IMG/VR virus record: IMGVR_UViG_3300023092_000001
Location: 6,825 to 70,824 of that record
Direction: 5' to 3' (one strand)
Source: a virus
Lineage: Duplodnaviria > Caudoviricetes
DNA: 64,000 bases
Part shown: positions 1,484 through 42,494 of the stretch, piece by piece
How positions within the stretch are numbered: position 1 is the stretch's first letter
Layout: every line of letters starts with the position of its first letter
Notes under the pieces: model-generated
What the model saw: only the letters and a program-made list of their open reading frames with translations
Told to the model about the DNA's origin: nothing
Databases searched by the model: none
Made by a program: the position numbers and the translations under genes

Positions 1484-1645
1484 GTGCGCACTGTGGCCTA
1501 TAAAAGGATTAACATGACCCTCCCACCCGCCCTCCTCAAGGAGGCGGCTGAGTTTGTGCCTCGTCGAGGCTTATCGGGTCTCGTTGCTCGACTTCTCAGG
1601 AAATGGCTGGACGAAAAGAAGAAGGAGAAAGAAAACGAAGTATGA
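1484..1645 (+). CDS. Ribbon-helix-helix DNA-binding protein
   Basis: From GTG 1484: KRINMTLPPALLKEAAEFVPRRGLSGLVARLLRKWLDE fits the RHH strand-helix-helix pattern; stop overlaps the next ATG. Confidence 0.6.
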   Translation: MRTVAYKRINMTLPPALLKEAAEFVPRRGLSGLVARLLRKWLDEKKKEKENEV

Positions 1646-2148
1646 GTGAAACAGCATTATCACGACCACACCTAGCCAAGTTCTGTGTGGGGCTTGGACT
1701 AGACATTGGCTTTGGGGGCGACGCTATCGTTCCCCACGCAATCACTTTCGATATGCCCCAGCCATACACCAATGTTGGTGGCGACAAGCAGATCATGCGT
1801 GGCGACTGCGCAGATCTGAGCATGTTCTGCGACGAGTCTTTGGCTTGGATTCATAGCTCCCATGTTTTGGAGGACTGGACCTATACTGATTTGGTGGGAA
1901 TTCTACGAGAGTGGCGTCGAGTCCTCAAACCAGATGGCGTGATCGTTACAAATTGCCCGGACCAGAAGAAATTTAAGGCGTACATCGCCATCAGCAAACA
2001 GGGGGATAATTTATCCCACAAGGAGCAGGACTTCTCCCTTCAGAACTTCAAGGATCGTGTCCTTGAGCCCACTGGGCCATGGGAAACGGTGTACGAGATG
2101 CCTGACGATGGGAAGTATTCTTGGTATCTGGCCGTCAAGAAAGTATGA
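1642..2148 (+). CDS. Class I SAM-dependent methyltransferase (small-molecule/glycan type)
   Basis: GLDIGFGG motif I and IHSSHVLED...EWRRVLKPDGV, typical of Methyltransf_11-like proteins; ATGA coupling at 1642. Confidence 0.8.
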   Translation: MSETALSRPHLAKFCVGLGLDIGFGGDAIVPHAITFDMPQPYTNVGGDKQIMRGDCADLSMFCDESLAWIHSSHVLEDWTYTDLVGILREWRRVLKPDGVIVTNCPDQKKFKAYIAISKQGDNLSHKEQDFSLQNFKDRVLEPTGPWETVYEMPDDGKYSWYLAVKKV

Positions 2149-2177
2149 ATTGCCTGATTGCTAGTGCCGTGTTAGTA

Positions 2178-2226
2178 GTTCGCCTCACCACCCAGTTTCC
2201 GCTGGATGGTGAGACTAACCTCAACA
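2178..2226 (+). promoter_or_regulatory. Conserved hairpin leader upstream of HNH gene 1
   Basis: GTTCGC-CTCACCA-c-CCAG-tttccg-CTGG-a-TGGTGAG-a-CTAACC-t-CAACA; same architecture as 6538..6587. Confidence 0.6.
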
Positions 2227-2240
2227 CGACTATTACTCGC

Positions 2241-2915
2241 ATGAAGGCTGAAAATACTGAAGCAGCGTCAAGCCCATTCCGCAATGGCGGAGGTAAATTA
2301 ATTGATCTCACTGGCCGAAAATTTGGAAGATTGTCAGTCATCGGTAGGCATCCACAAAACGCCAAAAACAAATCTCCGATGTGGGAATGCGTATGTGGAT
2401 GTGGCTCCGAGACTATTGTTAGTGGAACTCACCTTAGAGGAGGACATACGCAATCTTGCGGATGTAAAGGCAGGGAGGCTTTAGCTGGGCGATCATGTAC
2501 CCACAAAATGAGTAAAAGCGTTGAGCATAATACATGGTCAAAAATAAAAGCAAGGTGCCACAACCCAACAGATAAATGCTTTAGGTATTACGGAGCACGC
2601 GGGATCTCAGTCTGCGATAGATGGAGGTTCTCATTCGAGAACTTCTTTGCTGATATGGGTTTGCGACCAAGAGGAACAACCATTGATCGCATCGATAATG
2701 ATGGGAACTATGAACCGTCCAACTGTCGTTGGGCTACAAAAACTCAGCAAGCCAGAAACAAAAGGCGCTCTCTCAGATTTGAGTGGGATGGGGCTCTGAT
2801 GCAGATAAATGATATTTGCGACAAGGTAGGGATTCCCCGAGGTCTGGTTTATCAGAGAGTTAGGGCAGGATGGGATCATTACAGGGCCTTCACACAGCCA
2901 ATTCGTCGATCATGA
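2241..2915 (+). CDS. Freestanding HNH-type homing endonuclease
   Basis: DLTGRKFGRL..WECVCGCG..SCGC..ARCHNP..YYGARGISVCDRW..FFADMG.RP..TIDRIDNDGNYEPSNCRWAT; classic phage HNH signature. Probable start ATG 2241, after the hairpin leader. Confidence 0.85.
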   Translation: MKAENTEAASSPFRNGGGKLIDLTGRKFGRLSVIGRHPQNAKNKSPMWECVCGCGSETIVSGTHLRGGHTQSCGCKGREALAGRSCTHKMSKSVEHNTWSKIKARCHNPTDKCFRYYGARGISVCDRWRFSFENFFADMGLRPRGTTIDRIDNDGNYEPSNCRWATKTQQARNKRRSLRFEWDGALMQINDICDKVGIPRGLVYQRVRAGWDHYRAFTQPIRRS

Positions 2916-3877
2916 CTCCAAAGCTTTTTATTTGCAGTTCTCACGCATCAGGCGAAATCGACCCCACGATGATGGCGAACCTCTTCGCTCATCTGCCGAA
3001 TCGCGTTGCATCTGCCCATGAAGCGGACGCCGTGATCGTGGTGGTTGGGTATAGTGGAGACTACCGGTTCAACGAGGCTCTCCGCAGCATCTCGAAGCCC
3101 ATAATCCTGGTCGATTTGCTTGAGTACTTTGGGTTTTGTAGCAACCGCACGCATCTTTTTGGGATCGACGAGCTTCCGCCTAACATGCTTGGCGTGGGTG
3201 AATGGGGCACTCTGGATGAGTGGGTAAAGCACAATCCACCAGCTCTTTACTTCAAGAGGGAGTTATGGGAGGCAGATCGGCATGAGAAACTTCTTCCCAT
3301 CGAGTGGCCGTGCGTTCTTGATGCCTGGGCCATCGAATCCAAGGAGGCCTTCGACCGACGCCCGTTCCAGCTTTATTATTCTTGGGGATATTCCAATCCC
3401 ATCCGCCCGCGCCTCGCCTCGGAGATCTACGAACTCATGGCAGATGGCCTGATTGAGGTCATCGCCTCCCATGACCATATCGACGCCAAGCTCCACGAGA
3501 CCAATCGCCGATGGGTCAGCGTTCATGTCCCGCATACCCACCGCCTCCCTATTGGCGAGCTGATGCGCAGGCAGGCTCAAAGCAAGATGAGCGTGTCGCT
3601 CCCTGGCTCTGGGCGCTGTTGCTTCAGATCGACAGAAGCGCCTCTGCACACCGTTCCTGTGATGCTTGATGACGGCCACGCGTGGTCTCATCCCTGGATT
3701 GAAGGCGAGAACTGCATCCGCATCAACGAGTATCAGATGGGCCGACAACTAGAGCGTGAGACTCAACGCGACGATCTCCACCCCATCTACGTTGCGGCTC
3801 AAGAGAACTTAGAGCGGTATCGCACGATCCCGTACATCAACAACTACATCCTGCCAGCTATCGAAAGAGTTTTATGA
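2912..3877 (+). CDS. Glycosyltransferase, exostosin/GT47-like (GT-B) candidate
   Basis: C-terminal SKMSVSLPGSGRCCFRSTEAP..TVPV resembles the exostosin S.F.L.P.G.G...R..EA....PV block; N-terminal EADAVIVV also fits. Confidence 0.55.
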   Translation: MTPKLFICSSHASGEIDPTMMANLFAHLPNRVASAHEADAVIVVVGYSGDYRFNEALRSISKPIILVDLLEYFGFCSNRTHLFGIDELPPNMLGVGEWGTLDEWVKHNPPALYFKRELWEADRHEKLLPIEWPCVLDAWAIESKEAFDRRPFQLYYSWGYSNPIRPRLASEIYELMADGLIEVIASHDHIDAKLHETNRRWVSVHVPHTHRLPIGELMRRQAQSKMSVSLPGSGRCCFRSTEAPLHTVPVMLDDGHAWSHPWIEGENCIRINEYQMGRQLERETQRDDLHPIYVAAQENLERYRTIPYINNYILPAIERVL

Positions 3878-4395
3878 TCACCCACTTCTTTGTTTTTGAT
3901 GTTGAATCAGTTGGCCTTCATGGGGAGGCTTACGCTGTTGCTGGCGTCGTTATTGACGGCTCAGGCACTGAGCATCTAGCCTTTAAGATGGCGGTCAATC
4001 CAGCGAAGTGCGAGGGGGAGGATGGCGACCGCAAGTGGATTGCTGAAAACGTGCCATTTATAGAGGTGACGCACCAAGAGTCCGTGAAGATGCGCGACTC
4101 ATTTTGGTCCCTATGGCTAAGGGCCAAGGGTGACTATCCTGGGATTGTAATGGCCTCTGAATGCGGCTGGCCTGTAGAATCCAGATTCCTTAATTCAGTG
4201 ATCGACGATGCACGCCATGATCGAAACTGGGATGGCCCGTATCCACTTCATGATGTGGCCTCAGTAATGTTGGCCGCTGGGATGGACCCAATGGCTACCT
4301 ATGACCGGCTTCCAAATGAAGAGCCCAAGCATTGCCCGCTGGCTGATTCTCGTCAGTCTGCTCGGTTGTTGCTTGAGGCGCTAAATACCCTATGA
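3874..4395 (+). CDS. DEDDh 3'-5' exonuclease-like protein
   Basis: FVFDVESVG (ExoI), LHDVAS, and HCPLAD (ExoIII HxxxxD). Confidence 0.7.
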   Translation: MITHFFVFDVESVGLHGEAYAVAGVVIDGSGTEHLAFKMAVNPAKCEGEDGDRKWIAENVPFIEVTHQESVKMRDSFWSLWLRAKGDYPGIVMASECGWPVESRFLNSVIDDARHDRNWDGPYPLHDVASVMLAAGMDPMATYDRLPNEEPKHCPLADSRQSARLLLEALNTL

Positions 4396-5144
4396 AATCC
4401 GTCGAAGAACTACAGCTCTCACACGAGGCCCTCCAAATCGGAGTTCCTGATGGCATGATGCGCTTTACGGAGGACATCACGATTCCCTACACAACCGAGT
4501 CCAAGTTCGGGTTCGAGTTCTTCCGTTGGCGCTCGCCCGAGATGGTGGCCGAGATGGATTGCTTTATCGAACATGCGAGGGGCAAGAAGTGCTTTATGGA
4601 CGTTGGCGCTCTGCATGGCGTGTTCTCGTTGGTGTTCACGGCACTGAATCCTGATGGGGTGGCGTATGCAATCGAACCTCATGCTGAGTCTTTTATCAGT
4701 CTGTGCAAACAGATTAATGGAGACGAGCAGGTGATAGCTTTTTGTGATGCTTTATCAGACCATGATGGGGTTTTATCTATGGGGATGGAGTGGGGTATGC
4801 ATCTTGTTGCAGGCTTGCCGAACGGAGCTTCTGATGTGCCATGTACAACGGCAGATTTATTCTGCGCCGGGTATTTAATTAAGCCAGACCTCATCAAAAT
4901 CGACGTTGAAGGCCACGAGGCTCACGTCCTCCGTGGACTCAAGGCCACAATCGCCGATCACCACCCTACAATCTTCCTTGAGATCCACCCTAAGCGGCTA
5001 GCGGCCTGCGGAGAAGATGTCCAGGAGATGCTCGAAGCCCTGATGACTCAAGGATACTCGGCCACAGATACGCTTACCAATGAGCCTATCGGGTGGATGG
5101 AGATCCTGGCTAAGACCGAAGATTCACGCATCATTTTTACCTAA
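4392..5144 (+). CDS. FkbM-family methyltransferase 1
   Basis: FMDVGALHG, AIEPH, LIKIDVEGHEAHVLRG, PTIFLEIH. Confidence 0.85.
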   Translation: MKSVEELQLSHEALQIGVPDGMMRFTEDITIPYTTESKFGFEFFRWRSPEMVAEMDCFIEHARGKKCFMDVGALHGVFSLVFTALNPDGVAYAIEPHAESFISLCKQINGDEQVIAFCDALSDHDGVLSMGMEWGMHLVAGLPNGASDVPCTTADLFCAGYLIKPDLIKIDVEGHEAHVLRGLKATIADHHPTIFLEIHPKRLAACGEDVQEMLEALMTQGYSATDTLTNEPIGWMEILAKTEDSRIIFT

Positions 5145-5148
5145 CTAC

Positions 5149-5760
5149 ATGGATTTCGAACTGATTAAACGCCATATCGACCCTGTATCGTGCCTTGATA
5201 TTGGAGCTAATTCTGGGGCGTGGCACAACGAGGCCCGCCTCCATTGGCCTAACGCGTACTTCTTTCTGATCGAGGCAAACCCCGAGTGCGCGGAGGCCAT
5301 CGCCCAAACTGGGGCTTCCCACCGCATTACGGCCCTGAGTGACTGTGAAAAGGATGTGACTTTTTACACCCGAAAGGACGCACCTGGGTGTACAGGATGC
5401 AGCTATAAGAAAGAGGTCGGCACACCCTTCTATGAGGGCGAAAAAGCCGTTCCTCACATCATACGGACCCAGCGCCTGGATGACGTGGTCGAGGGGATGC
5501 CGTTTCAGTTGATCAAGATCGACACTCAAGGGAGCGAGCTTGAGATCCTGCGCGGGGGGCTGAATACCCTGGCCTCGGCTAAGGCGGTTGTGATGGAGTT
5601 GAGCCTAACTATCTATAACGAAGGCTCTCCCTTGGCGGATGAGCAGATTGAGTTTATGGCATCCCAGGGCTTCTATCTGGCGGAGAAACTGGGAACAATC
5701 TCACGGTGTATCGAGCCGTTTGACCCCATTCAGGAGGATGCTCTCTTTTTGAGGAAATGA
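5149..5760 (+). CDS. FkbM-family methyltransferase 2
   Basis: CLDIGANSG, LIEANP, RLDD, LIKIDTQGSELEILRGG; start ATG 5149. Confidence 0.85.
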   Translation: MDFELIKRHIDPVSCLDIGANSGAWHNEARLHWPNAYFFLIEANPECAEAIAQTGASHRITALSDCEKDVTFYTRKDAPGCTGCSYKKEVGTPFYEGEKAVPHIIRTQRLDDVVEGMPFQLIKIDTQGSELEILRGGLNTLASAKAVVMELSLTIYNEGSPLADEQIEFMASQGFYLAEKLGTISRCIEPFDPIQEDALFLRK

Positions 5761-6500
5761 ATCTGCAAATCGTAACAGTGGCCGATGGCCCGCCAACGCA
5801 CAGCTATCTCGTTCGAGGGTGGCAGGCTTTCAATGATTCCTGCCGACGTTATGGGTTTGATCCTGTTGTGCTTGGTTGGGGGCAGCTGTGGGGAGGGCTT
5901 GGGACTAAGCCTAAGCTGCTAAAGAGGGCGATTGAGGATGGCGCGGTCAGCGCTGATTATATCATTTTCGCAGATGCGTTTGATGTGGTATTCGCTCGCG
6001 ATCCATTACAGGCGCTAGTCACCTTTCAAGAAAACTGGGAGGAATCATATAAGATCATGTGGAATGCCGAGAAGCCCTGCTTCCCTGACGCCTCATTGGC
6101 TCAATTTCACCCAGAATCACCATTTCCTTGGAAGTATCTAAACAGCGGCCTATCCATAGGTACTCCAACCAGTTATCACCAAATCCTTAGTGAGATGGGT
6201 GTTGATGGGTGGGTTGACGACTTCCAAGTAAACGGAGTATGGTCGCACAAAAATGACCAGTTGGACGTACAGCATAAGTTCTTATTCGGCCAATGCGCTC
6301 CTCACGAGTTGAAGATGGGCCTAGACTCCGAGTGCTCAATGTTCCAGACGATTATTGGCATGGATGAGAGCGAGTTCGAGTGGGAGAATGGCAGGTTCCG
6401 CAATAAACTCACCGGACAATTCCCAACAGCTATCCATTTTAATGGTCCAGCAAAGACCGATGGCCTTATGGAGCCAATCCTGAAACACTTAGGCCTATGA
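5757..6500 (+). CDS. PLOD/LH3-type glycosyltransferase domain protein
   Basis: GWGQLWGG, KPKLL, IIFADAFDV, NAEKPCFP, YLNSGLSIG, DQ, LDSECSMFQT, HFNG in the order of the PLOD N-terminal GT domain; no hydroxylase domain. Confidence 0.75.
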   Translation: MNLQIVTVADGPPTHSYLVRGWQAFNDSCRRYGFDPVVLGWGQLWGGLGTKPKLLKRAIEDGAVSADYIIFADAFDVVFARDPLQALVTFQENWEESYKIMWNAEKPCFPDASLAQFHPESPFPWKYLNSGLSIGTPTSYHQILSEMGVDGWVDDFQVNGVWSHKNDQLDVQHKFLFGQCAPHELKMGLDSECSMFQTIIGMDESEFEWENGRFRNKLTGQFPTAIHFNGPAKTDGLMEPILKHLGL

Positions 6501-15650: not shown

Positions 15651-15890
15651 GTGAGTGACCTTTCCCAACCATCGAACCCTATGCCCACATTGTATGGCTT
15701 AGGATCTCCACCTGGGAGTTTGGGCGCACCCGGCCAAACTTACATGGATAACAATAACGGTAAAATCTACAAAAAGACCGGGGATTCATCTTGGGCTTTT
15801 GTGGGCCAATGTGCGTCCTCGGTAACAGATACCGATGTTGGATTCATTGGACCTGATGGAATTGAACGTTTCGCGCCTCTTTCAGCATGA
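15651..15890 (+). CDS. Small fibre-associated protein
   Basis: G.G.P.G..G.PG.TYMD..NGKIYKK pattern, commonly seen at fibre N-termini. Confidence 0.45.
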
Positions 15891-16774
15891 AGATCATCTT
15901 CCTTATACTATTTATCGCCTCCACCGCTTGTGCGCAGTCGGTCGGGGATTGGCGCGTGCCGGTATGGAATAATCCGCCCACCACTACTACCCAGCAAAAC
16001 TTTAGAGGAGCAAATTTGTCTGCGTTGGCAGCAGCAACGCCCGCTTCAAGCTCCTTCTTTGGTAAGGACGCGAGCGGCAACTGGGGATTCTTCCCCACAG
16101 CCGCTTTCATTGGACCCCAGGGCGTCCAAGGGGCATCTGGAGCCACCGGGCCACAAGGCTTAACGGGTGCGAATGGAGCGCAAGGAACCCAAGGAGCAAC
16201 TGGCTCTCAGGGCCCACAAGGAATCCAGGGGCCAAAAGGTGATACTGGAGAAGCTGGTCCTCAAGGAGTGGCTGGCACTAGCGGCTCCCAAGGCCCTCAG
16301 GGAGTTAAGGGTGATACTGGCAATACCGGCTCGACTGGGGCTGTTGGCGCTCAGGGAATCCAAGGCATTCAAGGCGCTACTGGGGCCACGGGCGCAACTG
16401 GCGCTACAGGATCATCAGGCAGCAACGGGACTAACGGGACTAATGGCACCTCTTTTAATGTATCGTCGCCCAGCTCATGGTCATCGGTTACTATAGGTAC
16501 AGCCTTCCAGCCAAACCCAACGGGACCGTGCCTACTGTATATCAAGGCCGCTAATTCCTCCGTAGTTGGATTGGTGGTAACAGCCAAAATAACATGGTGT
16601 GCAACCCAGAATGGCACTTACGCAGATGGGCCTGAATGCTCGTTAACCACGATCCTCGGGCTCCTCAGTCCTGTTGACACCATGACATATGCCGTCCCAA
16701 GTGGGGTTTGGATAAAGATTACTGCCACGGCAGGTGGGACAACAACTGTGACCAAGCAAGTAACTAGCTTATGA
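15887..16774 (+). CDS. Collagen-like protein with N-terminal signal-peptide-like sequence
   Basis: 38 uninterrupted Gly-X-Y triplets (16112-16453); N-terminus [17 protein letters not shown]; beta-rich C-terminal domain. Confidence 0.85.
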
Positions 16775-17325
16775 GCGGACAGGAAACAGACGAGATTCAG
16801 CACCTGAGTACATCCGTTGCCCGACAAGAGCAGCGCCTATCTGGTGTTGAGAACGCTGTTGCGAGCATGGCTGCGGATTTTAAATCGTTTACCCAGAGCT
16901 TTAACACATCCAGGGAAACGAATTGGCCCATGCTGATCTCCATCGCTGGGTTGGTTTTGGTTATCATAGGAGGATTGTGGCAAATCGTTGATCTTAAAAG
17001 CCAAGTTGCCCTGTCTCCAATCCAGGCTCAGAACGCTATATCGGTCATCGAGCGTGGCGAGTTGAGGCGCGAGATTTCAGGTCACTCAGGCCTTATTTCC
17101 GATGAGATTTCACACCGGAAAGAGGCTCTTTCTGCTTTGCAGCAGCAATTGGTAGAAGCGGAGACCCAACACAGGACGAGGGACATTGTCGGGGCTAAGG
17201 ATTACGAAAACGTCATGAGTCATATACGAGTACTTTATGCCTCTATGAAGTTGCCAACACCTGACTCCCCAAGTTTTCACCCATCCATCGGCAGAGAGAT
17301 CTCCACGCCCATACCAAATAACTAA
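16771..17325 (+). CDS. Single-TM coiled-coil protein, paralog of 436..969
   Basis: Shares TNWPM.IS..G.....G.W.I.DLKSQ and NAIS with 436..969. Confidence 0.65.
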
Positions 17326-19073
17326 TGAGCGCTTCATGGAAAACATCTCCACAGTGGAGGATCGCGCCCTCATGGAGGGGAAATCCCACATGGAGAAATA
17401 ATCCATCTTGGCACACACCAAGCCCTCCTAATCCGCCATCGCCACCAACATTTGACTCGACCCCAGCGATACTTAGTGATGGCGATGTAACTCAACCGAT
17501 CACGGGGGACATCTTTACTGCTTCAGTTTCTGTCAGTGGGACAACACCGATTACGACCACATATCAGTGGCAGAAGGACACGGGTGGAGGGTTTGCCAAC
17601 ATTGTTGGTGCAACATCGTCAACATACACCGTGCCATCAGGTCAGACTGGTAATAAGTACCGTGTCGTTGTTGGTATCTCAAACATAGTTGGGAATGACA
17701 GCGCTAATAGCAATGAATCGGGTGTGGTTGTTGCCACAACGACATCAATATTCAACGTTGATAACACTAATTCCACCATCGGACCTCAGGGTGTATTTAC
17801 CACCCCATTCCAGTTCATCAATACAGGCACAATTGCATCGTTCCGTTGTTATGGATACAAGGTGACGCTCAAGAACATGCAGGCCGCTGGAGCAAACGCG
17901 AGGCTGTGGGTTAATGGAGTCCTGTTCGGAACCATTTCGTCCACAAGCTACCACGATGAGATTGTGTGGCATGGTCCTGAGCAATGGGTTTTGGTGGAGG
18001 TTGATTGCCGTAACCAGACGCTTTATTTCGGTACTGTTGGCGCTTGGGTTCAGGTGATAGGGACAGCTCCAGCTATAGGCATTGATCCGGCTATTGGACG
18101 CCGCTTGGGTCCAACGGGCGCAACCGCGTTTAACCCCGTCAATGCGACCGTGATCCCTGAGGATCATTACATATCTCTTATCGCGAAAGCAGATAGCATG
18201 CTTATTCGCACTAATCTCAACTCTGGTTACATTCCTAATTCGGGGGGGTGGACCAATGATCAGCCTCAAGAGAGTACGAATGTGGTAGTTTCCCAGCCTT
18301 GGGGAACATTTAGACGCGTTACGTTGGGTGGAGATCCTCTAGCTGCAAAAGAGCACCTTTATCGCCTCCAAACAAGCGCCATCATCAGCGATATTCTCTT
18401 GCAGGGGGGTGACTCCAGCGCAGACGCCCCAACAACTGTTCGTGAATATGGCCTTGTCGTTACAGGAACCAGCCTCACCACGAGCGTAGAAGGCGTAATT
18501 TTTGGCGGATGGAGCCAGAAGATCACCAACAACCTTCATGGCCGAGTTCAGACGATCAATTTAGGCATCGGCGGAAGCCCCCTTTACCCCAATTACCCAG
18601 GAGAGAGCGGATTCAAGTCCAGCTTCTTCATCAAAGATCAGATCGTTGATAACCTCAATCTTTTCGCTAATCCAATCTTCTTCATCTCACATCTATGCAA
18701 CGATGTGGGCAACCTGAATGTTTCTGGAGTCCCCAAGACTCCGACAGAATTTAAGGACAAGTTGGTGGAGTTGGTGGAGTACATCATTGCCAATGTCCCA
18801 AACCTCTACCATGTCTTCATCGGGGACATCGAGACCCACTACCAAGAGGCGTTCAGACCAACGTGGAGCCCGGCATTGCCTGCTGCGGTGGCTGAACTGA
18901 ATGGCACGTACCCAGGGCTTTGCACCTACATCGCCACAGACCAAGATGTGGGCGGAGGCGTTCTTTGGTATCAAACAGTCGCGGTTGCCGTGGACAATAT
19001 CCACCCAACCGATGCGGGATGTGAGACTATCGCACTCCATCACGGTCCTTATATTGATGCTGTTCTGGTATAG
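17325..19073 (+). CDS. Tail fibre/receptor-binding protein: Trp repeat + Ig-like domain + SGNH hydrolase
   Basis: Ig-like segment (TYQWQKD..FANIVGATSSTYTV..GNKYRVVV); SGNH blocks VTGTSL, NLGIGG, LCND, DNIHP. Confidence 0.7.
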   Translation: MSASWKTSPQWRIAPSWRGNPTWRNNPSWHTPSPPNPPSPPTFDSTPAILSDGDVTQPITGDIFTASVSVSGTTPITTTYQWQKDTGGGFANIVGATSSTYTVPSGQTGNKYRVVVGISNIVGNDSANSNESGVVVATTTSIFNVDNTNSTIGPQGVFTTPFQFINTGTIASFRCYGYKVTLKNMQAAGANARLWVNGVLFGTISSTSYHDEIVWHGPEQWVLVEVDCRNQTLYFGTVGAWVQVIGTAPAIGIDPAIGRRLGPTGATAFNPVNATVIPEDHYISLIAKADSMLIRTNLNSGYIPNSGGWTNDQPQESTNVVVSQPWGTFRRVTLGGDPLAAKEHLYRLQTSAIISDILLQGGDSSADAPTTVREYGLVVTGTSLTTSVEGVIFGGWSQKITNNLHGRVQTINLGIGGSPLYPNYPGESGFKSSFFIKDQIVDNLNLFANPIFFISHLCNDVGNLNVSGVPKTPTEFKDKLVELVEYIIANVPNLYHVFIGDIETHYQEAFRPTWSPALPAAVAELNGTYPGLCTYIATDQDVGGGVLWYQTVAVAVDNIHPTDAGCETIALHHGPYIDAVLV

Positions 19074-20063: not shown

Positions 20064-20519
20064 ATGTCAGCCACCGTCATCGTTTACCTCGAAGGACAGC
20101 GTACCGCCAAGATTGACGGTTGTACGGGTGATCCTGTGCTGATGGTGTTCGACATGTCGAGCGGCACATATCGCGATCAGTTCACCATCGCCAACGACAA
20201 TGAGGGCCTGTTCTTCCCTGGTCTAAACAACGATCCTGCGGCCATAGCTATCCAAGTTCCACCAGTGGTACAGGCCGCGCTTGTGCCTACGGGGAATATC
20301 ACCATTGTTCACCCGCTTCCAAGCTCGACCACCTCTAATCTTGAGGCAAGCTCGTTTGCCATCGCGGTGTCAGACGAAATAGCACACACCCCACCACGAA
20401 CTGAGGTGTCGCAGTTATCGTATTGGTGCTTTCCCACCAACAAGGATGGTGTGATCATGTTCCAAAGGTGGAGGATGGATAAAGTCATCGGGTGGTGTAA
20501 TATGCCGCCAACGATCTAA
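20064..20519 (+). CDS. Hypothetical virion protein
   Basis: Tightly packed in the structural operon. Confidence 0.55.
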   Translation: MSATVIVYLEGQRTAKIDGCTGDPVLMVFDMSSGTYRDQFTIANDNEGLFFPGLNNDPAAIAIQVPPVVQAALVPTGNITIVHPLPSSTTSNLEASSFAIAVSDEIAHTPPRTEVSQLSYWCFPTNKDGVIMFQRWRMDKVIGWCNMPPTI

Positions 20520-21331
20520 TGGCATCTACATTCCAGCTTATTGGCACGGACAACCCCACCGAATGGATGGTGGCTATAACGATTCCAGACCAATCCATCA
20601 ACGAGAAGTTGGCGCTGTTGCCAAGCGGAAATATTCTAGAGCAGTATACGCCATACAACAAATTTACCTGGGGAGGTACACTTCCTCGGTCCACCGAGTT
20701 TGGCAATTATCGGTACATGACAAGTAGAAAGAACTCGGCAGATAGCACGACATTCTACTTCGCGAAACCTCGAACCGATGAGGAAAAGAACACTCCCTAT
20801 AAAATAATCTGGGGGACCCACGACTTCGTTTGGCCAGCAGTTTTATTAGATCTGTACTTCATTAAGTCCTCTTTCCCGCAGAACACTTACAACGGGACGA
20901 CAACCGAAAGCGCGATCCGTTACTTCCAGCGCCACAAGTACGTGCCTTCCACACCAGCAAACAGCGTGGTGAAGATCGAGAAGTTCTTGTCAGACACCTC
21001 ATGGACGTACAGCCAACTCACCCACGAACAACCTGTTACGGCTGAGATCGACGGCACATTTCTGGGGCTCCAGGTTACGTTTCCTCGGTGCTTGCATCGT
21101 CGCGTAATCCTCAAGGAACTTGTTCCAGGGGCCCAGATCGTCTATGGCAGTGGCATGGATGGCTCAGACCGCCAGGGCACGCCTAGGCAGCAGATATTCC
21201 CTGCCACCAACTTTGTGGACTGGGATGCTTTTGTCTTTGCGGATGATGCGCCAGAGAACGAGTATAAGATGTTCGAACGGCAAAAGGTGACAATTTACCC
21301 GCCAACTCGAACAGAGCCTATCCAAAACTGA
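20519..21331 (+). CDS. Hypothetical tail protein
   Basis: 270 aa, beta-rich; start overlaps the previous stop. Confidence 0.55.
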   Translation: MASTFQLIGTDNPTEWMVAITIPDQSINEKLALLPSGNILEQYTPYNKFTWGGTLPRSTEFGNYRYMTSRKNSADSTTFYFAKPRTDEEKNTPYKIIWGTHDFVWPAVLLDLYFIKSSFPQNTYNGTTTESAIRYFQRHKYVPSTPANSVVKIEKFLSDTSWTYSQLTHEQPVTAEIDGTFLGLQVTFPRCLHRRVILKELVPGAQIVYGSGMDGSDRQGTPRQQIFPATNFVDWDAFVFADDAPENEYKMFERQKVTIYPPTRTEPIQN

Positions 21332-21335
21332 CCCC

Positions 21336-22097
21336 ATGCCCAAGAGCCCCCAGCCACCATCTCCTACTGGGTCATTCTTTAGTGCGCGCAGGTGGGTTAT
21401 GGGCGATGGCCCAGTGACTAGCTTTAAGTCGTGGGATGGCAAGACTGACATCATTCAGTCGTCTCCGGCCCCCATAGTTAAGCAGGAGAACTACTCGGTG
21501 ACGTTTATCCCGCCACCGACCACCACGAGTACGTCAACAACTCCTGATACCACGACTACGACCACGACAGAGGATACTACCACGACCTCTACCTCAACAA
21601 CCGAGGACACAACGACTACCACAACAGAGGACACGACAACGACCGCAGATACGACTACGACATCGACGACAACAACTGAAGAGACGACCACCACAACAGA
21701 AGAGACGACGACTACAAGTACAACCACGACCGCAGAAACGACCACAAGCACGAGCACAACGCTGCCGCCTGTGGACTACTATTACTTCACGCCATCAGAC
21801 ACCAATCTCCCTATGGAGGACGGGGCCACGGAGCCGCTTTCCGCCACTCTTTATGCCCACACAAGCGGTGGTGATTTCGTGGTTGCTGGGGCTGCCGTGG
21901 ACTTCACGATTATCACGGGTAGCGGATCACTCAGTGCTCCTAGCGGGTTAACGAATGGGTCGGGTGTGGCTACGGTGGATTATACGAATGACGCCTCTGA
22001 TGCCACTATCTCCATTATTGCGGTCGGCAAGCCTAGCATGGGAGGACCAGATGCGAGGTCAGATTTCCATATCCTCAATCCCTCGCCGTCCCCATGA
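21336..22097 (+). CDS. Mucin-like Thr-rich protein with C-terminal Big_1-like Ig domain
   Basis: 81-aa tract (21519-21761) with 57 Thr and 8 Ser; C-terminal VAGAAVDFTI..G.GSLS..SGLTNGSGVATVDYT is an intimin/invasin Big_1-like pattern. Confidence 0.8.
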   Translation: MPKSPQPPSPTGSFFSARRWVMGDGPVTSFKSWDGKTDIIQSSPAPIVKQENYSVTFIPPPTTTSTSTTPDTTTTTTTEDTTTTSTSTTEDTTTTTTEDTTTTADTTTTSTTTTEETTTTTEETTTTSTTTTAETTTSTSTTLPPVDYYYFTPSDTNLPMEDGATEPLSATLYAHTSGGDFVVAGAAVDFTIITGSGSLSAPSGLTNGSGVATVDYTNDASDATISIIAVGKPSMGGPDARSDFHILNPSPSP

Positions 22098-22702
22098 GGC
22101 ACTACGACTTCATCGAAATAGGAACCTCGGACTTTGATTCCATAATCGGTCATTGCAGCGATGATGCGGTTGGCATCTCAATCGAGCCGATCTCATGGTA
22201 CTTGGACTCTCTACCCAACCCGCCCAAGGTGGCTAAGGTCAATGAGGCGATCTCGAACGTTCCAGGGCTATGTGAGATAAGGTATGTGCCAAGGGATAAG
22301 GTGGAACTCTACGGTTTGCCGTTATGGCTGAGAGGCTGTGCTCAGATCGACAGCACTCATCCCATTATCGAGCAATACATCGCTTGCGGAAAACTACCCG
22401 CTGAGGAGGTAATGGTGCGGACTGTGCGCAAAACTACCCTTCTAGACATTTACGACCGCTTTCGGGTGGCGTCAGTGGATCTGCTGAAGATCGACGCCGA
22501 GGGCCATGACACAGTGATCCTGGACGGATTCATCGAGCAGTTCATGGAAACCCAGAGGCGGAAGAAACGCCTGCCCAAGAGGATATTTTTTGAGTCCAAC
22601 TCGCTAACTACACCCCAGGCCTTGGCAAAAACAGTGGGTTTGTACGAGGCTGTCGGATACGAGGTTGAATCCACGGGCTACAATACTACTTTGGTGCGAT
22701 GA
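22094..22702 (+). CDS. FkbM-family methyltransferase 3
   Basis: FIEIGTSDFD, ISIEP, VDLLKIDAEGHDTVIL, P..IFFE; coupled to both neighbours by ATGA overlaps. Confidence 0.8.
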   Translation: MRHYDFIEIGTSDFDSIIGHCSDDAVGISIEPISWYLDSLPNPPKVAKVNEAISNVPGLCEIRYVPRDKVELYGLPLWLRGCAQIDSTHPIIEQYIACGKLPAEEVMVRTVRKTTLLDIYDRFRVASVDLLKIDAEGHDTVILDGFIEQFMETQRRKKRLPKRIFFESNSLTTPQALAKTVGLYEAVGYEVESTGYNTTLVR

Positions 22703-23574
22703 GCGCACTGAAGCTGAGTATTTGTATGGCGACGTTCGATGATTTCGATGGAGTTTCTTTCTCGATTCAGGCTATCCGCATGTACCACAATCTACCTGAT
22801 GTGGAGTTTGTGGTGCTCGACAACAACCCAGACGGAGCCCACGGAAAGGCTGTAAAGCAGTTCCTCCAGGACATCCCGAATCACAAGTACGTCGAAGTTC
22901 GGGATCGCAAGGGAAGCTGGGTGAAGTACTTGGCGGCTCAACATGCCTCACCTGATAGAGACATCGTTTTGGTCCTCGATTGCCATGTGCTGCTCGTGCC
23001 TGGGTTCTTTGACGCGCTCTTCACCTTTTGGGAGAACAACCCCAGGAGTGCCAATATGCTGACTGGGCCGATCATATACAACCGTTTCGATGCTATCAGC
23101 ACGCACATGGACCCTGTGTGGCGAGGTCATGACTTCGGCATCTGGGCAAATCACCCCGACCACGCTCTAGGTCTGCCGTTTGAGATCCCTATGATGGGTA
23201 TGGCCTGCTTTAGTTTCCTCCGCCGAGCTTGGCAGCCGATTACGCCGCTTGTGAAGGGATTCGGCTCCGAGGAGTGGTATATGGCCGAGCACACGCGTAG
23301 GAACGGGGGTATCATTGTTTGCCACCCAAAGATGCGCTGGTGGCACAGGTTTGGCAGGCCATTAGGGATTCCGTTTCCCATCTCGGTCGAGGACAAAGTC
23401 CATAATTACTACGCTGGGTGGCTCGATCTTTATGAAACCTTGAGTCACCCTAGGATCGTGGAGATGAGCCGCTGGTGGTGCAAGGAACCTCAGGCTAACG
23501 GAAGGCCTGTGCTGAGTGAGGGTGTGCTTCGAGGGATTGTGCGCGGGATTACGGACGAGAAGCTTGTGCTGTAG
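22699..23574 (+). CDS. GT-A glycosyltransferase (GT2-like N-terminus; DxH and ppGalNAc-T-like C-terminal motifs)
   Basis: LSICMATFDD, EFVVLDNN, LVLDCH, P.MGMACFS, GFGSEE, NGG....P..RWWHRF. Confidence 0.75.
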   Translation: MSALKLSICMATFDDFDGVSFSIQAIRMYHNLPDVEFVVLDNNPDGAHGKAVKQFLQDIPNHKYVEVRDRKGSWVKYLAAQHASPDRDIVLVLDCHVLLVPGFFDALFTFWENNPRSANMLTGPIIYNRFDAISTHMDPVWRGHDFGIWANHPDHALGLPFEIPMMGMACFSFLRRAWQPITPLVKGFGSEEWYMAEHTRRNGGIIVCHPKMRWWHRFGRPLGIPFPISVEDKVHNYYAGWLDLYETLSHPRIVEMSRWWCKEPQANGRPVLSEGVLRGIVRGITDEKLVL

Positions 23575-38737: not shown

Positions 38738-38835
38738 CTATTCTTCCGCCTCACCCAAACCCCGAACTCGACAATCCAATCAATGATCTTCATGCCAGCG
38801 AGAACGATGGCGGCGTTAAAGAGGAGATCATTCAT
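38734..38835 (-). CDS. 33-aa membrane peptide
   Basis: Manual translation MNDLLFNAAIVLAGMKIIDWIVEFGVWVRRKNR; ATGA overlaps on both sides. Confidence 0.45.
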   Translation of the reverse strand: MNDLLFNAAIVLAGMKIIDWIVEFGVWVRRKNR

Positions 38836-38990
38836 GGCTGCAAAAGTGGTGAATCTTCTTTAATGCCTAAAGACATCGCAATCTCACGGTTGCTCATTCC
38901 AAGCTTTCGGAATCGGATAACGTCACGACGATTTCCCTTCATTTCCCGAGTCATTTTCCTAACTATGGCATTTGGCGCTTTCTTTTTCAT
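38832..38990 (-). CDS. Small HTH protein
   Basis: RDVIRFRKLGMSNREIAMSLGI HTH pattern; start ATG 38990. Confidence 0.55.
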   Translation of the reverse strand: MKKKAPNAIVRKMTREMKGNRRDVIRFRKLGMSNREIAMSLGIKEDSPLLQP

Positions 38991-39252
38991 AATCTTTTCT
39001 AGATAGAGTTTGAATTTGTTTTGTAATGTCCTGTATCTCCAAATTAACAAGCCTCTCCAAAACCGCCTCCCGTATCTCCTGGGTATGCGCTCCCTCGATC
39101 AGCCACTTTCGCAGCGTGCGAGGATCTTGCTCGTCCACGATAAAGTCGGGGAATTTAGCCCAAGACGCCGCTTCGAGTCCATTGAGTTTCATAGGCTCTT
39201 GCTGCGCTGGGTTGTTAAGTTTCCAACGCGTTCTTGTAAGCGTTAAACTCAT
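38959..39252 (-). CDS. Hypothetical protein
   Basis: ORF track; fits the operon. Confidence 0.45.
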   Translation of the reverse strand: MSLTLTRTRWKLNNPAQQEPMKLNGLEAASWAKFPDFIVDEQDPRTLRKWLIEGAHTQEIREAVLERLVNLEIQDITKQIQTLSRKDYEKESAKCHS

Positions 39253-39430
39253 GAAGGCGTTGCGTTATGATGCTCAGCCTATCGCGTGCTCGTGGCATTG
39301 ATTCGCCAAGCTCCTTTTGATTATTTGCAAATTGGCAATCGTAAAGATCATCGAGGAATAACTCGGCCTCTTTTATGGTTTGTTTGATTGCAGCATCAGC
39401 ACTTTTGGACAGTGATTTTTCGGTTTTCAT
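39215..39430 (-). CDS. Hypothetical protein
   Basis: Start trimmed to MKTEKS (39430), 4 nt after the upstream stop. Confidence 0.5.
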   Translation of the reverse strand: MKTEKSLSKSADAAIKQTIKEAELFLDDLYDCQFANNQKELGESMPRARDRLSIITQRLHEFNAYKNALET

Positions 39431-39434
39431 ATTG

Positions 39435-39812
39435 TTAACAGGTGATTTCGAAGGGGCGTGAATCCCACTTTGGAAAGACCAAAGTGGGTTGTGGAAAGAA
39501 GATTGTTGGAGGTGGCGGTGTATTTTTACCCGCTCTCTCCACCAACTCCTCGTATTCCCGCCGCTTACGGATATCCTCTTTAGGGTCGGTCTTCGGCATA
39601 CCAACCTCTACCCTAAGCAGTCGCAACATCTCATCCAGCCGCTTCACGTGCTCCTGTTGGCTGGCGTTCTGCGCTTTCTCCATCCAGTATTTCACCACCT
39701 CCCGAAGCTCGGCCTTTGTGCCGCTGGCAATCTCCTCCGAGATGTCGTTGCTGAGTTGGTCGATGCGGGACTGGGTGATGGGTGTGTGTTTCTTGGGTGT
39801 ACGCTTCTTCAT
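39435..39812 (-). CDS. Hypothetical protein
   Basis: Helical 125-aa ORF in the operon. Confidence 0.55.
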   Translation of the reverse strand: MKKRTPKKHTPITQSRIDQLSNDISEEIASGTKAELREVVKYWMEKAQNASQQEHVKRLDEMLRLLRVEVGMPKTDPKEDIRKRREYEELVERAGKNTPPPPTIFFPQPTLVFPKWDSRPFEITC

Positions 39813-39819
39813 ACCTGTT

Positions 39820-40062
39820 CTATTCTAGGTATTTCTTCCCCCACTGGATTGCGAGCACCAGTAGCTCCCTCTGGCTTTTGAGCCCCAGCTTGTCCTTAAT
39901 GTTCTGTTTGTGGACATCGGCGGTCTTGCGCGAGATGCCCATAGCGGACGCGATGTCGAGTGAGTTGTGACCAACTGAGAGGCATTGGAAAACATCCATC
40001 TCCCTTTTTGTTAGGAGTGGACGATGTGGCAGAATGAAGTTCTCCTTGGGTTTGTGTCGCAT
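39820..40062 (-). CDS. LuxR/NarL-type HTH transcriptional regulator (DNA-binding domain only)
   Basis: LTKREMDVFQCLSVGHNSLDIASAMGISRKTADVHKQNIKDKLGLKSQRELL, a canonical LuxR C-terminal HTH. Confidence 0.85.
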   Translation of the reverse strand: MRHKPKENFILPHRPLLTKREMDVFQCLSVGHNSLDIASAMGISRKTADVHKQNIKDKLGLKSQRELLVLAIQWGKKYLE

Positions 40063-40089
40063 GAGGTCGTTGTTGGCGGGTGGTTTCGA

Positions 40090-40356
40090 TTACTCAATTA
40101 CTCTGCCGTTGGCTTTAAATTTCTTATCAAGTGCAGCTAGAGACCACCTTGCTTTGGCAGCCCTACGTGCCTGTTCAGAGCATTTCTCCTTACCTAGCTT
40201 TCTCGCCCGAGCCTTGCCGCCTGCGGCCTGGGGTATGCCATCACCGAAGATCGTGCTTGGAGGCGTTCCGCTATCAGCTTGGGCGTCATGGCGCAGAGAG
40301 ACTGGGAAGCCATTAACTTTCACTACGGAGCCCTTTGGAAGGAAAATCTTATGCAT
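40090..40356 (-). CDS. Small basic protein with GGKARA..L...SE.AR.AAKARW motif
   Basis: Motif read directly; start trimmed to MHKIF (40356). Confidence 0.55.
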   Translation of the reverse strand: MHKIFLPKGSVVKVNGFPVSLRHDAQADSGTPPSTIFGDGIPQAAGGKARARKLGKEKCSEQARRAAKARWSLAALDKKFKANGRVIE

Positions 40357-40414
40357 GCTCGGATTATGTATGCGTGCATTGATGCTTGCAACATCTTTCT
40401 TCTCGCGGGTGGAG

Positions 40415-40813
40415 TTAGTCTTGTATCGACTTCTCAAATTCGATTGGGATAATGCCATTCGGCAGACGCTCCCTAAACAAAGGCCCAATGTCCTTGTATT
40501 TGTGGCCCGCTAGCCCGCAACCAACAAGTGTCACAAGGAATGTGAGGCCTGGGTTTGCTTGAGCGCATTCGTAAAACCTCCTAACATGGGTGGCTATTTG
40601 CTCCACCGTCATTTTGGATAAGCTTCTTCCGACAGTGGGAAGCGCATAACACCTTCCCGTTAGACCCTCGGCGTCACCCCATTTAGCGCCAAACTTCTGC
40701 ATTGCGTATTTGGCTGCGCCCTTCCCGTGGCGTCCTTCGGTGTTGCTGCCGAAGACGAATATCTCTCCCTCGGCTAAGGATCGGATGTCTGGAGGCGTGT
40801 TTGTGTATTTCAT
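40415..40813 (-). CDS. A1S_2505-like phage non-structural protein
   Basis: EIFVFGSN.EGRHGKGAA..A..KFGA.WG..EGL.G.CYALPT and FLVT.VGCGLAG signature. Confidence 0.75.
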   Translation of the reverse strand: MKYTNTPPDIRSLAEGEIFVFGSNTEGRHGKGAAKYAMQKFGAKWGDAEGLTGRCYALPTVGRSLSKMTVEQIATHVRRFYECAQANPGLTFLVTLVGCGLAGHKYKDIGPLFRERLPNGIIPIEFEKSIQD

Positions 40814-40826
40814 AATTTAGTGGCTT

Positions 40827-41138
40827 CTACTTGGGGTTGCTACGACGAGCAGACTTCTTCTTGGCAAGCTTGGGGATTTTGTGCTTCGAGCCTCCAAGAG
40901 CCTTCCTTTCGGTTGGCATAACTATAGAACACACATGCTCACGCCAAGTGTGATTTGGGTAGTGATGGTTGTGGTCTGATGCGTCCAGGGCCAGCTTTGG
41001 TGCTCCATTGCCAGTCTGGATAATGGTCTTCGTGCAATACGGGCAAGGATACGGTCCATACCAAACGACATTGGGATCACGCAAGGTCGGGAGGAGATTG
41101 GTGGAGACGAGATATGTTAGAGTGGGCGATTTAGCCAT
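40827..41138 (-). CDS. Hypothetical protein with CxxC/His cluster
   Basis: CPYC...HNHH..EHVC; basic C-terminus. Confidence 0.5.
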   Translation of the reverse strand: MAKSPTLTYLVSTNLLPTLRDPNVVWYGPYPCPYCTKTIIQTGNGAPKLALDASDHNHHYPNHTWREHVCSIVMPTERKALGGSKHKIPKLAKKKSARRSNPK

Positions 41139-41534
41139 GGCCGAATTTTACCTATTCTGTTAGGCTGCGCCACAGCATTCAACCGAAAGGTCACATCAGT
41201 ACTGAATGAGGTTAGGAAAGAATGTACTTAGTACATCCCTCATTCCTTCGATTACTCAAAGAGAAAAGATCCCTCACGACGAATTGAGAGGGTGAGAAAC
41301 CCCGACCCGCGCCCCAAAGCACAAGTTACCCTGCTAAGCGTAACAACATGGACGCAGGCCGGGGAAAGAAAACCGCCGCCAAGGGATGAAACCTTGACGG
41401 CGGGAACAAGAGAACAAAAACAATAAAGCCACACAAACGCCGCTAGGGCCATCCGCGCCGTACGAGTCACCACAGGTCACTCAACGATTGGATTTTAGGC
41501 CCTGACGGCTAGATGGCAAGGGGAATGTTGTGGG

Positions 41535-42494
41535 TCACACAGCGGCGATCACCTTCTTGCTGCACGGAATCCACTCGTTCGAGCCGAATGGGCAACGCTC
41601 CCATCTTTCCGCGAGGGTTCTATAGGTTGGGCAGTGACTGCTAATCTGACGAGAGTGGCAGGTATTCAGCAGCGAAATGTCAACCTCCCCAGCATAGGCC
41701 ACAACCCACCACTGACGATCATACCCCTTCATGCGAAAGCGATCTCCAGGGTTGATGTCAGAAAACTCCAAGGGCACGATGTTGTAGGTGGCCTCTGGGA
41801 GGGGTCGTGAGGTTCTGGCTAAAGTGATGGCGCATTCTTCTGGCGGGAAAACCATCATCCATACGGACCCCGAAAGTGCGCGGAACTCATCAACTCCACC
41901 CACCGTTGTCTCTCCCTCTAATAGCGCCCTCTTTCCATCCTCCCAACACTCTTTGGTAGGGTTATGCCACTGACGACCCTCAGGCGGCTCTGGAGGCGTC
42001 CAAGCGGGATCTGGTGTGGGTTCCTGCGTGGAGACTTTGCGACGACCCTTAAGATCTAGGTTGAGCTTTTGACCAACCACGCTTGGGTCACAGGAGTACC
42101 ACTCTAAGCCAGCACACGACAGCTCATCCCCCTCTTCGAGCTTACTCACGCCAGGGGTGAGGGCAAGGTACGTGGTTTCTGCGACAGGCACGGTCTTCTG
42201 CGCCTCAGCATGCGCGAGGACGGCGTTAGCCACGGCTCCCCACACCTGCTTATCTTCGTAACCATCCCACCTTGAAGGAGCAAGGTGAGCTAGACAGTAG
42301 GTTTCGTATGCCACCTGACCAGGTGATTTTATGGGAAGATCTTCGGGCTTCACGCGGTAATCGTGAACGTCTCCATCCCACTTGTACTCGCCGAAGTCCT
42401 TAAAACGACCGTCCCCATCCCGTTTCTCGACCGTCTTCCCCTCCGCTAAAGCTGTGATTAGCGGGAGCCATTGTGTTGCGTTTTCTTTGTTCAT
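41535..42494 (-). CDS. Modular hypothetical protein, paralog of 47999..48613
   Basis: Shares YRVKP, WTPP, KECWEDGKRALL, RPLPE, VPLE..DI..GD and EW.PC.K with 47999..48613. Confidence 0.65.
   Translation of the reverse strand: MNKENATQWLPLITALAEGKTVEKRDGDGRFKDFGEYKWDGDVHDYRVKPEDLPIKSPGQVAYETYCLAHLAPSRWDGYEDKQVWGAVANAVLAHAEAQKTVPVAETTYLALTPGVSKLEEGDELSCAGLEWYSCDPSVVGQKLNLDLKGRRKVSTQEPTPDPAWTPPEPPEGRQWHNPTKECWEDGKRALLEGETTVGGVDEFRALSGSVWMMVFPPEECAITLARTSRPLPEATYNIVPLEFSDINPGDRFRMKGYDRQWWVVAYAGEVDISLLNTCHSRQISSHCPTYRTLAERWERCPFGSNEWIPCSKKVIAAV

Follow-up and report, generated by a model that had tools for sequence, protein, structure and literature searches.

Mucin-type O-glycosylation, as started by the polypeptide N-acetylgalactosaminyltransferases (GalNAc-T) of family GT27, is regarded as eukaryotic. 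This report describes a cassette of three phage genes coding for a stalk protein with a tract of threonine (Thr) and serine (Ser), an FkbM-family methyltransferase and a GT27-like glycosyltransferase. The cassette lies in a stretch of 64,000 nucleotides (nt), hereafter the window, which corresponds to positions 6,825 to 70,824 of the IMG/VR record IMGVR_UViG_3300023092_000001 (Caudoviricetes) and is nearly all of this 70.8-kb virus record. Gene order, protein families and a modelled fold make it likely that the cassette is a phage-encoded, cytoplasmic unit of mucin-type protein O-glycosylation which acts on the Thr tract.

Family GT27 (human GalNAc-T1, T2 and T10, Toxoplasma GalNAc-T3) provides the GT-A fold closest to that of the window transferase. 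Both have a DxH motif and a downstream histidine (His) as putative metal ligands, as well as a second half of the Gal/GalNAc-transferase type. A dense Thr/Ser (T/S) acceptor tract is a further likeness, and in the phage it is genetically paired with the enzyme. Unlike GT27, the phage enzyme is predicted to be soluble and cytoplasmic, with no ricin-type lectin domain, type II anchor or secretory pathway; the identity is 13-16%, and the genes for acceptor and enzyme are neighbours. Related to GT27 are the cytoplasmic polypeptide alpha-N-acetylglucosaminyltransferases (GlcNAc-transferases) of protists (GT60, PF11397), some of which are soluble, lack a lectin domain and initiate O-glycans on Thr or hydroxyproline. 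One PF11397 gene was found within 2.5 kb of an IMG/VR poly-Thr open reading frame (ORF), whereas the window enzyme gave no PF11397 match at E <= 0.1 and the fold searches listed no GT60 structure. The FkbM-family O-methyltransferases (FkbM of FK506 synthesis, rhizobial NoeI) methylate hydroxyls, which are sugar hydroxyls in the case of NoeI, and the window methyltransferase shares their PF05050 family membership.

In mycobacteriophages (Che8 and its relatives), phage glycosyltransferases have been proposed or shown to decorate the phages' own structural proteins, and glycans on the major capsid protein were shown experimentally (Freeman et al. 2023, as summarised in PMC11256854). As far as that system is described in this source, the present one differs in its dedicated poly-Thr stalk, GT27-like enzyme and coupled methyltransferase, and in being predicted from gene sequences. 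The Hoc-type decoration proteins of phage T4 also expose an immunoglobulin (Ig)-like module on a low-complexity spacer, but the spacer found here comes with its own modifying enzymes, and we know of no glycosylation of Hoc. To our knowledge, glycosylation of phage-particle proteins has been shown only in mycobacteriophages. A full-text literature search returned no paper that describes poly-Thr acceptors paired with a GT27-like enzyme in phages or bacteria.

Results

Organization of the cassette

The three ORFs were confirmed on the + strand (Table 1), with products of 253, 202 and 291 amino acids (aa). Both gene pairs are joined by ATGA overlaps, ccccATGAgg at 22094 and gcgATGAgc at 22699, in agreement with the translational coupling claimed in a sequence-only reading of this DNA. 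The stalk-protein gene begins 4 nt past the preceding gene, and the cassette forms the end of a long co-directional operon. Directly downstream, on the opposite strand, lies a DNA methyltransferase gene (phrog_799). No hydrophobic segment or membrane anchor was found in the cassette proteins, and all three are predicted to be soluble. A minus-strand poly-valine ORF (21491-21757) was rejected as a gene, since it mirrors the Thr tract.

Codon differences were counted against L219, a 90%-identical homologue from another metagenome with the same gene order. The transferase gene showed 68 synonymous and 13 non-synonymous differences, the methyltransferase gene 40 and 6, and the part coding for the N-terminal module of the stalk protein 6 and 1. 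Since the differences from L219 are mostly synonymous, it was concluded that all three genes are functional and under purifying selection.

Fold and family of the transferase

The third protein contains the strings LVLDCH, PMMGMACFS, GFGSEE and NGGIIVCHPKMRWWHRF, so that the DxH motif and the downstream GT27-like string expected in it are all present. In an alignment of 38 homologues, which agrees with the start at 22699, D41, N43, D94, H96, E191, H216 and R217 are invariant. D94-x-H96 together with H216 are putative Mn2+ ligands.

The AlphaFold2 model built on this alignment had a predicted local distance difference test (pLDDT) value of 92.6. When it was compared with the PDB by Foldseek, all listed matches to rank 49 were GT27 polypeptide GalNAc-transferases, with E down to 1e-14 and a template modelling (TM) score of 0.71 on the query. 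VIA-align, a Foldseek-independent all-against-all comparison, gave Z 22.4 for GalNAc-T1 (260 aligned, root mean square deviation 3.1) and Z 21.5 for Toxoplasma GalNAc-T3 (TgGalNAc-T3). The best GT-A proteins outside GT27 were chondroitin polymerase K4CP (17.6), B4GALNT1 (17.5) and GlfT2 (17.1), and the prophage teichoic-acid enzyme TarP reached 14.4. In the choice between GT27 and GT2, structure search thus groups the enzyme with GT27.

The family profile matched GalNAc-T10 over residues 37-244 (E 4e-4). In this alignment DxH falls on DSH, PFEIP-MxGxG on PFESPVMAGG, GFGxEE on WGGEQ and the invariant His on the His of VGH. GalNAc-T4 and T12 were matched at E about 5e-3, and the match to TarP (E 1e-6) was confined to the N-terminal nucleotide-binding half. 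In Pfam, residues 7-146 matched Glycos_transf_2 (PF00535) at 24.2 bits (cut-off 23.3), a generic model to which GT27 catalytic domains belong as well. No PHROG match was found for the transferase. The lectin domain and the anchor are absent, and the enzyme is therefore named GT27-like and not a GT27 member.

At least 394 protein clusters make up this large family. It occurs at 369 or more viral loci and at 334 or more loci of bacterial species-representative genomes, and hundreds of the homologues are about 280 aa long. Among 50,697 GenBank phage records no match was obtained to 10 kb of the window (megablast) or to the transferase (tblastn). A family common in nature is therefore absent from the phages that have been studied.

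The stalk protein

The stalk of 81 aa with 57 Thr and 8 Ser, as first read from the sequence, was recovered with exactly these counts at residues 62-142. Over a wider tract of 89 aa the Thr codons are ACG (20), ACA (16), ACC (15) and ACT (7). Tandem Repeats Finder detected degenerate repeats only, the best with a period of 75, 2.4 copies and 74% matches. With all four ACN codons in use and such degenerate DNA repeats, the view that the tract is not a slipped microsatellite holds. Against L219 it showed 20 synonymous and 2 non-synonymous codon differences, and this largely synonymous divergence indicates that Thr is maintained by selection on the protein. No other real T/S tract occurs in the window.

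The C-terminal 111 aa matched Big_1 (PF02369) with E 3.2e-5 and 24.4 bits, under the gathering cut-off of 34.9. The ten ESM Atlas feature matches listed for this tip domain were all Big_1/Invasin_D3 clusters (scores 0.91-0.94), and the structure matches of its ESM Atlas model (pLDDT 0.57) were mostly Big_1-containing proteins at TM about 0.7. The Big_1-like Ig end proposed earlier thus agrees with the Pfam E-value and the ESM Atlas matches but not with the Pfam score, and a Big_1-like assignment of the domain has moderate support. An AlphaFold2 model of the whole stalk protein from a three-sequence alignment was discarded (pLDDT 34), and the protein had no PHROG match.

Between the Ig-like tip (21762-22094) and L219:5124-5450, 46 synonymous and 22 non-synonymous codon differences were counted. 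In this comparison the tip evolves much faster than the tract or the enzymes, and the L220 orthologue of the stalk protein is without it. Fast evolution and loss in L220 are as expected for an exchangeable binding module.

Co-occurrence of transferase and tract in one lineage

The gene directly 5' of the stalk-protein gene, c10, was used as anchor for a lineage-controlled test. Homologues of c10 stand directly 5' of the tract gene in L001, L004, L007, L008, L010, L011, L035, L219 and L220. The c10 protein has no Pfam match and no PHROG match, and its ESM Atlas neighbours are viral hypothetical proteins. From 53 loci fetched, those with at least 4.5 kb downstream were counted. Tract and transferase were both present in 14 and both absent in 15; two had a weak tract (PSTSAS-type, 0.67) and no transferase, and none carried the transferase with no tract (Fisher's exact test, p 5e-7, uncorrected for descent). 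In three relatives of this lineage that are 96-100% complete, no member of the transferase family was found anywhere in the genome.

The relatives that have no transferase keep an orthologous stalk protein with the same N-terminal module. A W-x-x-G-D/W-x-W-G motif is common to the orthologues that follow c10 in the relatives, with tails that are T/S, proline (Pro)-rich or collagen-like. Where the transferase is missing, the tails are not pure T/S; they consist of PPTT, PSPS, PTPT or collagen-like Gly-Pro-rich (GPxGP) repeats. In the PPTT group the gene after the tail gene codes for a protein of 487 aa that includes a distant GT-A domain (family model, E 4e-11), and the view that relatives lacking the enzyme have no glycosyltransferase at all was consequently discarded as wrong. 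After a PTPT tail the next gene codes for a protein of 477 aa, which shows a weak similarity to the N-terminal part of the 487-aa protein (BLAST E 1e-4). After one PSPS tail it codes for a methyltransferase fused to a segment resembling the sialyltransferase ST3Gal1. These replacements look like a natural series of acceptor-enzyme swaps (examples in Table 1). Tail chemistry and enzyme type change together, which is what an acceptor-enzyme pair predicts and not what is expected of a hitch-hiking linker.

Linkage across viral loci

A first linkage test comprised 80 IMG/VR loci carrying the transferase, with T/S-tract ORFs defined by at least 70% Thr+Ser over 30 aa. Of 26 such ORFs, 24 were situated at most 4.5 kb upstream of the transferase on the same strand, and the other two just downstream. 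This upstream zone makes up 13.8% of the surveyed strand-bases (binomial p 5e-19, the loci not being independent). The tract proteins are mutually unrelated and measure 154-1184 aa, with the tract N-terminal, central or C-terminal. Several contain adhesin-type modules (Ig-like, fn3, ConA-like lectin, CBM5/12 or beta-propeller). On a quick tree of the enzyme, the tract association needs at least six origins across well-supported branches. The window enzyme belongs to a fully supported clade of 16, in which a tract gene occurs at every locus with upstream sequence. A lack of linkage between homologues and Thr-rich genes would have spoken against the sequence-only reading; the opposite was found.

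The reverse test started from 69 random IMG/VR loci with an ORF carrying T>=10. Four of them carry the transferase, which abuts the tract gene in three of the four. A Pfam census of 123 neighbours of random poly-Thr ORFs returned a handful of transferases (four GT2 and one GT60-type) and methyltransferases. Poly-Thr does not generally predict a neighbouring transferase. The random poly-Thr sample L101-L180 includes several contigs from giant-virus bins. Among the neighbours within 2.5 kb in this sample are a strong match to PF11397 (GT60-type polypeptide GlcNAc-transferase, E 3e-31), two 2-oxoglutarate-Fe(II) oxygenases and two collagen-repeat proteins.

Bacterial homologues

Bacterial homologues were found mainly in Alphaproteobacteria, Desulfobulbaceae (including the cable bacteria Electrothrix and Electronema), Arenicellales and Thermomicrobiales, and also in Hyphomicrobiales; some are from cultured strains, and Labrys, Desulfofustis glycolicus and Devosia are cultured bacteria with the homologue beside an exported poly-Thr protein. 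Here the GT27-like domain makes up the C-terminal half of proteins about 610 aa long (bacterial genome contigs L221-L300). These homologues are often preceded by a small protein with a twin-arginine-like signal motif (RRxAIKKI...LPAHA), a beta-rich domain and a C-terminal poly-Thr tail. Outside phages, this bacterial pairing of poly-Thr and enzyme is an independent recurrence. One of the proteins of about 610 aa has a weak HPr-kinase-like match in its N-terminal half.

The methyltransferase and other glycan genes

The product of the middle gene passed the PF05050 (FkbM) cut-off narrowly, with 23.4 bits against 22.7. Of its 155 homologues most carry PF05050, which makes the FkbM family membership sound, as had been proposed for this gene; several are named FkbM by their sources, and the L012 homologue scores 36.9 bits. 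The FkbM profile gave no meaningful sequence match in the PDB.

The tailoring genes between acceptor and transferase vary among loci and include FkbM-like and class I methyltransferases, a second GT2 and a capsule/polysialyltransferase-like gene. In one relative (L001:8363-10019), the poly-T/S gene is separated from the GT27-like gene by a GT9-like gene (heptosyltransferase family) and a polysaccharide pyruvyl transferase gene, which suggests that the glycans built on this kind of stalk differ between lineages.

Further genes of this type form a 5' glycan island in the window (Table 1); the five other ORFs of the 1603-6497 block have no Pfam match. Among the genes upstream of the cassette is one for a 582-aa protein. 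In the relative L220, a separate protein of 478 aa, encoded further upstream in the operon (1510-2946), contains a GDSL/SGNH esterase domain. Such a domain in L220 would fit a receptor-modifying fibre.

Table 1 Features of the window and of related loci (window positions unless a locus is named)
Feature	Position	Strand	Remarks
Stalk-protein gene, 253 aa	21336-22097	+	First gene of the cassette
N-terminal module of stalk protein, putative attachment part	21336..21518 (aa 1-61)	+	Conserved W-x-x-G-D/W-x-W-G motif
Poly-Thr tract, proposed O-glycan acceptor	21519..21761 (aa 62-142)	+	57 Thr, 8 Ser, short acidic interruptions
C-terminal Big_1-like Ig domain and stop codon	21762..22097 (aa 143-253)	+	Pfam and ESM Atlas
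FkbM-family S-adenosylmethionine (SAM)-dependent methyltransferase, 202 aa, predicted soluble	22094..22702	+	PF05050
GT-A glycosyltransferase, 291 aa, predicted soluble, GT27-like catalytic domain	22699..23574	+	Fold, profile, motifs
c10, 270-aa protein, no assigned function	20519..21331	+	Conserved gene directly 5' of stalk-protein gene across phage lineage
Class I methyltransferase	1603-2145		5' glycan island, just upstream of head genes
FkbM methyltransferase	4392-5141		5' glycan island
FkbM methyltransferase	5080-5757		5' glycan island
PLOD-type glycosyltransferase	5757-6497		5' glycan island
Collagen-like tail-fibre protein	15887-16774		Upstream of cassette; many PHROG tail-fibre matches
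582-aa protein	17325-19073		Upstream of cassette
Tail/enzyme swap, example	L303:9007-10467		
Tail/enzyme swap, example	L345:9211-10641		
Tail/enzyme swap, example	L310:2620-3711		
Tail/enzyme swap, example	L316:8771-9511		
Bacterial example	L234:4434-6840		From contigs L221-L300
Bacterial example	L297:203-946		
Bacterial example	L286:4389-4898		

Discussion

The gene arrangement, the selection on the tract, the kinship in fold and motifs, the solubility and the recurrent, lineage-controlled co-occurrence of enzyme and tract were computed here. The GT27-like fold, the FkbM family and the tract linkage support the earlier proposal that substrate, initiating transferase and methylase are encoded together. 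In this scheme, the soluble, lectin-less enzyme would start the glycan by attaching the first sugar to Thr/Ser hydroxyls in the 81-aa tract, whose gene lies two positions upstream of its own. The donor would be a uridine diphosphate (UDP)-sugar of the host, perhaps with GalNAc as the sugar, and a divalent metal would be held by D94, H96 and H216, the mechanism probably being a retaining one. The FkbM-family enzyme may then O-methylate the first sugar or its extension with SAM as methyl donor, and other transferases of the 5' glycan island may extend the glycan. The result would be a bottle-brush stalk, stiff and resistant to proteases. Glycosylated Thr-rich linkers, such as the O-glycosylated Pro/Thr linkers of secreted bacterial enzymes, resist proteases. 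The conserved N-terminal module may attach the stalk to the particle, with the Big_1-like Ig domain displayed at the tip, and a role in adhesion or shielding is conceivable.

Alternatively, the transferase and the methylase could glycosylate other virion proteins, the capsid or the collagen-like fibre, as in mycobacteriophages, and the Thr tract would be an unmodified flexible linker. The further toolkit near the head genes (two FkbM enzymes, a PLOD-type glycosyltransferase and a class I methyltransferase) agrees with this explanation, as do the presence of a collagen-like fibre and the position of the enzyme far from any T/S gene in replication-module phages. It leaves unexplained, however, why pure T/S tails in the c10 lineage occur only with the enzyme and are otherwise Pro-rich or collagen-like, and why unrelated tract proteins stand directly upstream in at least six enzyme clades. 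We consider it unlikely.

Less probable still is that the enzymes modify a polymer of the host envelope (lipopolysaccharide, capsule or teichoic acid), as in receptor masking or serotype conversion by prophage TarP or Gtr, while the Thr gene hitch-hikes in a mobile cassette. FkbM enzymes often act on glycolipids and polysaccharides, the Pfam assignment of the transferase is GT2, and the N-terminal half of the family profile does match the teichoic-acid GlcNAc-transferase TarP. Over the full length, however, both fold and profile favour GT27 over TarP (Z 22.4 against 14.4). Moreover, a membrane segment, a flippase and an undecaprenyl-linked partner are all lacking, the genes overlap with the late structural operon, and the co-variation of tract and enzyme would be left unexplained.

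Glycosylation of phage DNA or of a nucleotide precursor by the enzyme is highly improbable: 38 of 80 homologues do lie between deoxynucleoside monophosphate (dNMP) kinase, PD-(D/E)XK nuclease and DNA polymerase, and the window gene abuts the opposite-strand DNA methyltransferase gene, but this gene is translationally coupled to the stalk-protein operon and not to the DNA methylase, no DNA glycosyltransferase is among the 50 VIA-align matches listed, the phage DNA glucosyltransferases known to us have other folds, and (TS)n proteins are encoded in replication-module genomes too. None of these three alternatives accounts for tail chemistry and enzyme changing together.

Several observations weigh against O-glycosylation of the tract by the GT27-like enzyme. 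Acidic residues interrupt the tract, which is unusual for good GalNAc-T sites. The only Pfam family matched by the transferase is the generic GT2 model, barely over its cut-off, and the identity to GT27 is 13-16%; the catalytic domain fills the 291 aa, leaving neither a ricin-type lectin domain nor an N-terminal membrane anchor. As to a location in the virion, the one indication is gene order, the cassette being placed in the late operon, and no PHROG match was obtained for head and tail genes of the window phage. Most viral poly-Thr ORFs have no transferase within 2.5 kb, and the co-occurrence statistics are uncorrected for shared descent. In 8 of the 80 loci the enzyme is placed between terL and portal, with no tract on these short contigs. 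Finally, 38 of the 80 viral loci have the enzyme in a replication module with no adjacent T/S gene. With about half of the viral homologues placed in this way, adjacency of enzyme and tract is not universal.

The order in the replication block is DnaB helicase, primase, dNMP kinase, PD-(D/E)XK nuclease, enzyme, a 330-aa gene of no assigned function and the alpha subunit of DNA polymerase III. This class is a large phage clade with genomes of about 160 kb (38 loci among L016-L080, e.g. L050). An absence of Thr tracts from these phages, as obtained with an ACN x8 pattern, was rejected as a false negative, since a composition scan found alternating Thr-Ser tracts. The complete 161-kb genome G005 (= L085-L093) encodes two adjacent (TS)n proteins (38833-42367), about 58 kb from the enzyme. 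Of two more replication-module records, one has a large T/S tract and the other probably has one. Such distant tracts remove the counter-example but lend weak support to the pairing, there being no chance baseline for 160-kb phages.

Beyond this phage, it is about an even question whether a large family of soluble GT27-like polypeptide O-glycosyltransferases is common to phages and many bacteria, each enzyme being paired with an encoded poly-Thr/Ser acceptor whose composition co-evolves with the enzyme type. Such a family would be the equivalent, in prokaryotes and viruses, of eukaryotic mucin-type O-glycosylation and possibly its evolutionary source, as well as a general phage way to build glycosylated surface stalks. 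If the reading of the cassette as a glycosylation unit is true, the compact set of acceptor, methylase and lectin-less GT27-like enzyme would be a minimal system for dense Thr O-glycosylation in the bacterial cytoplasm, of interest to glyco-engineering. It would also give a handle on how uncultured environmental phages shield their particles or make them stick, and would provide data on the origin of the GT27 catalytic domain.

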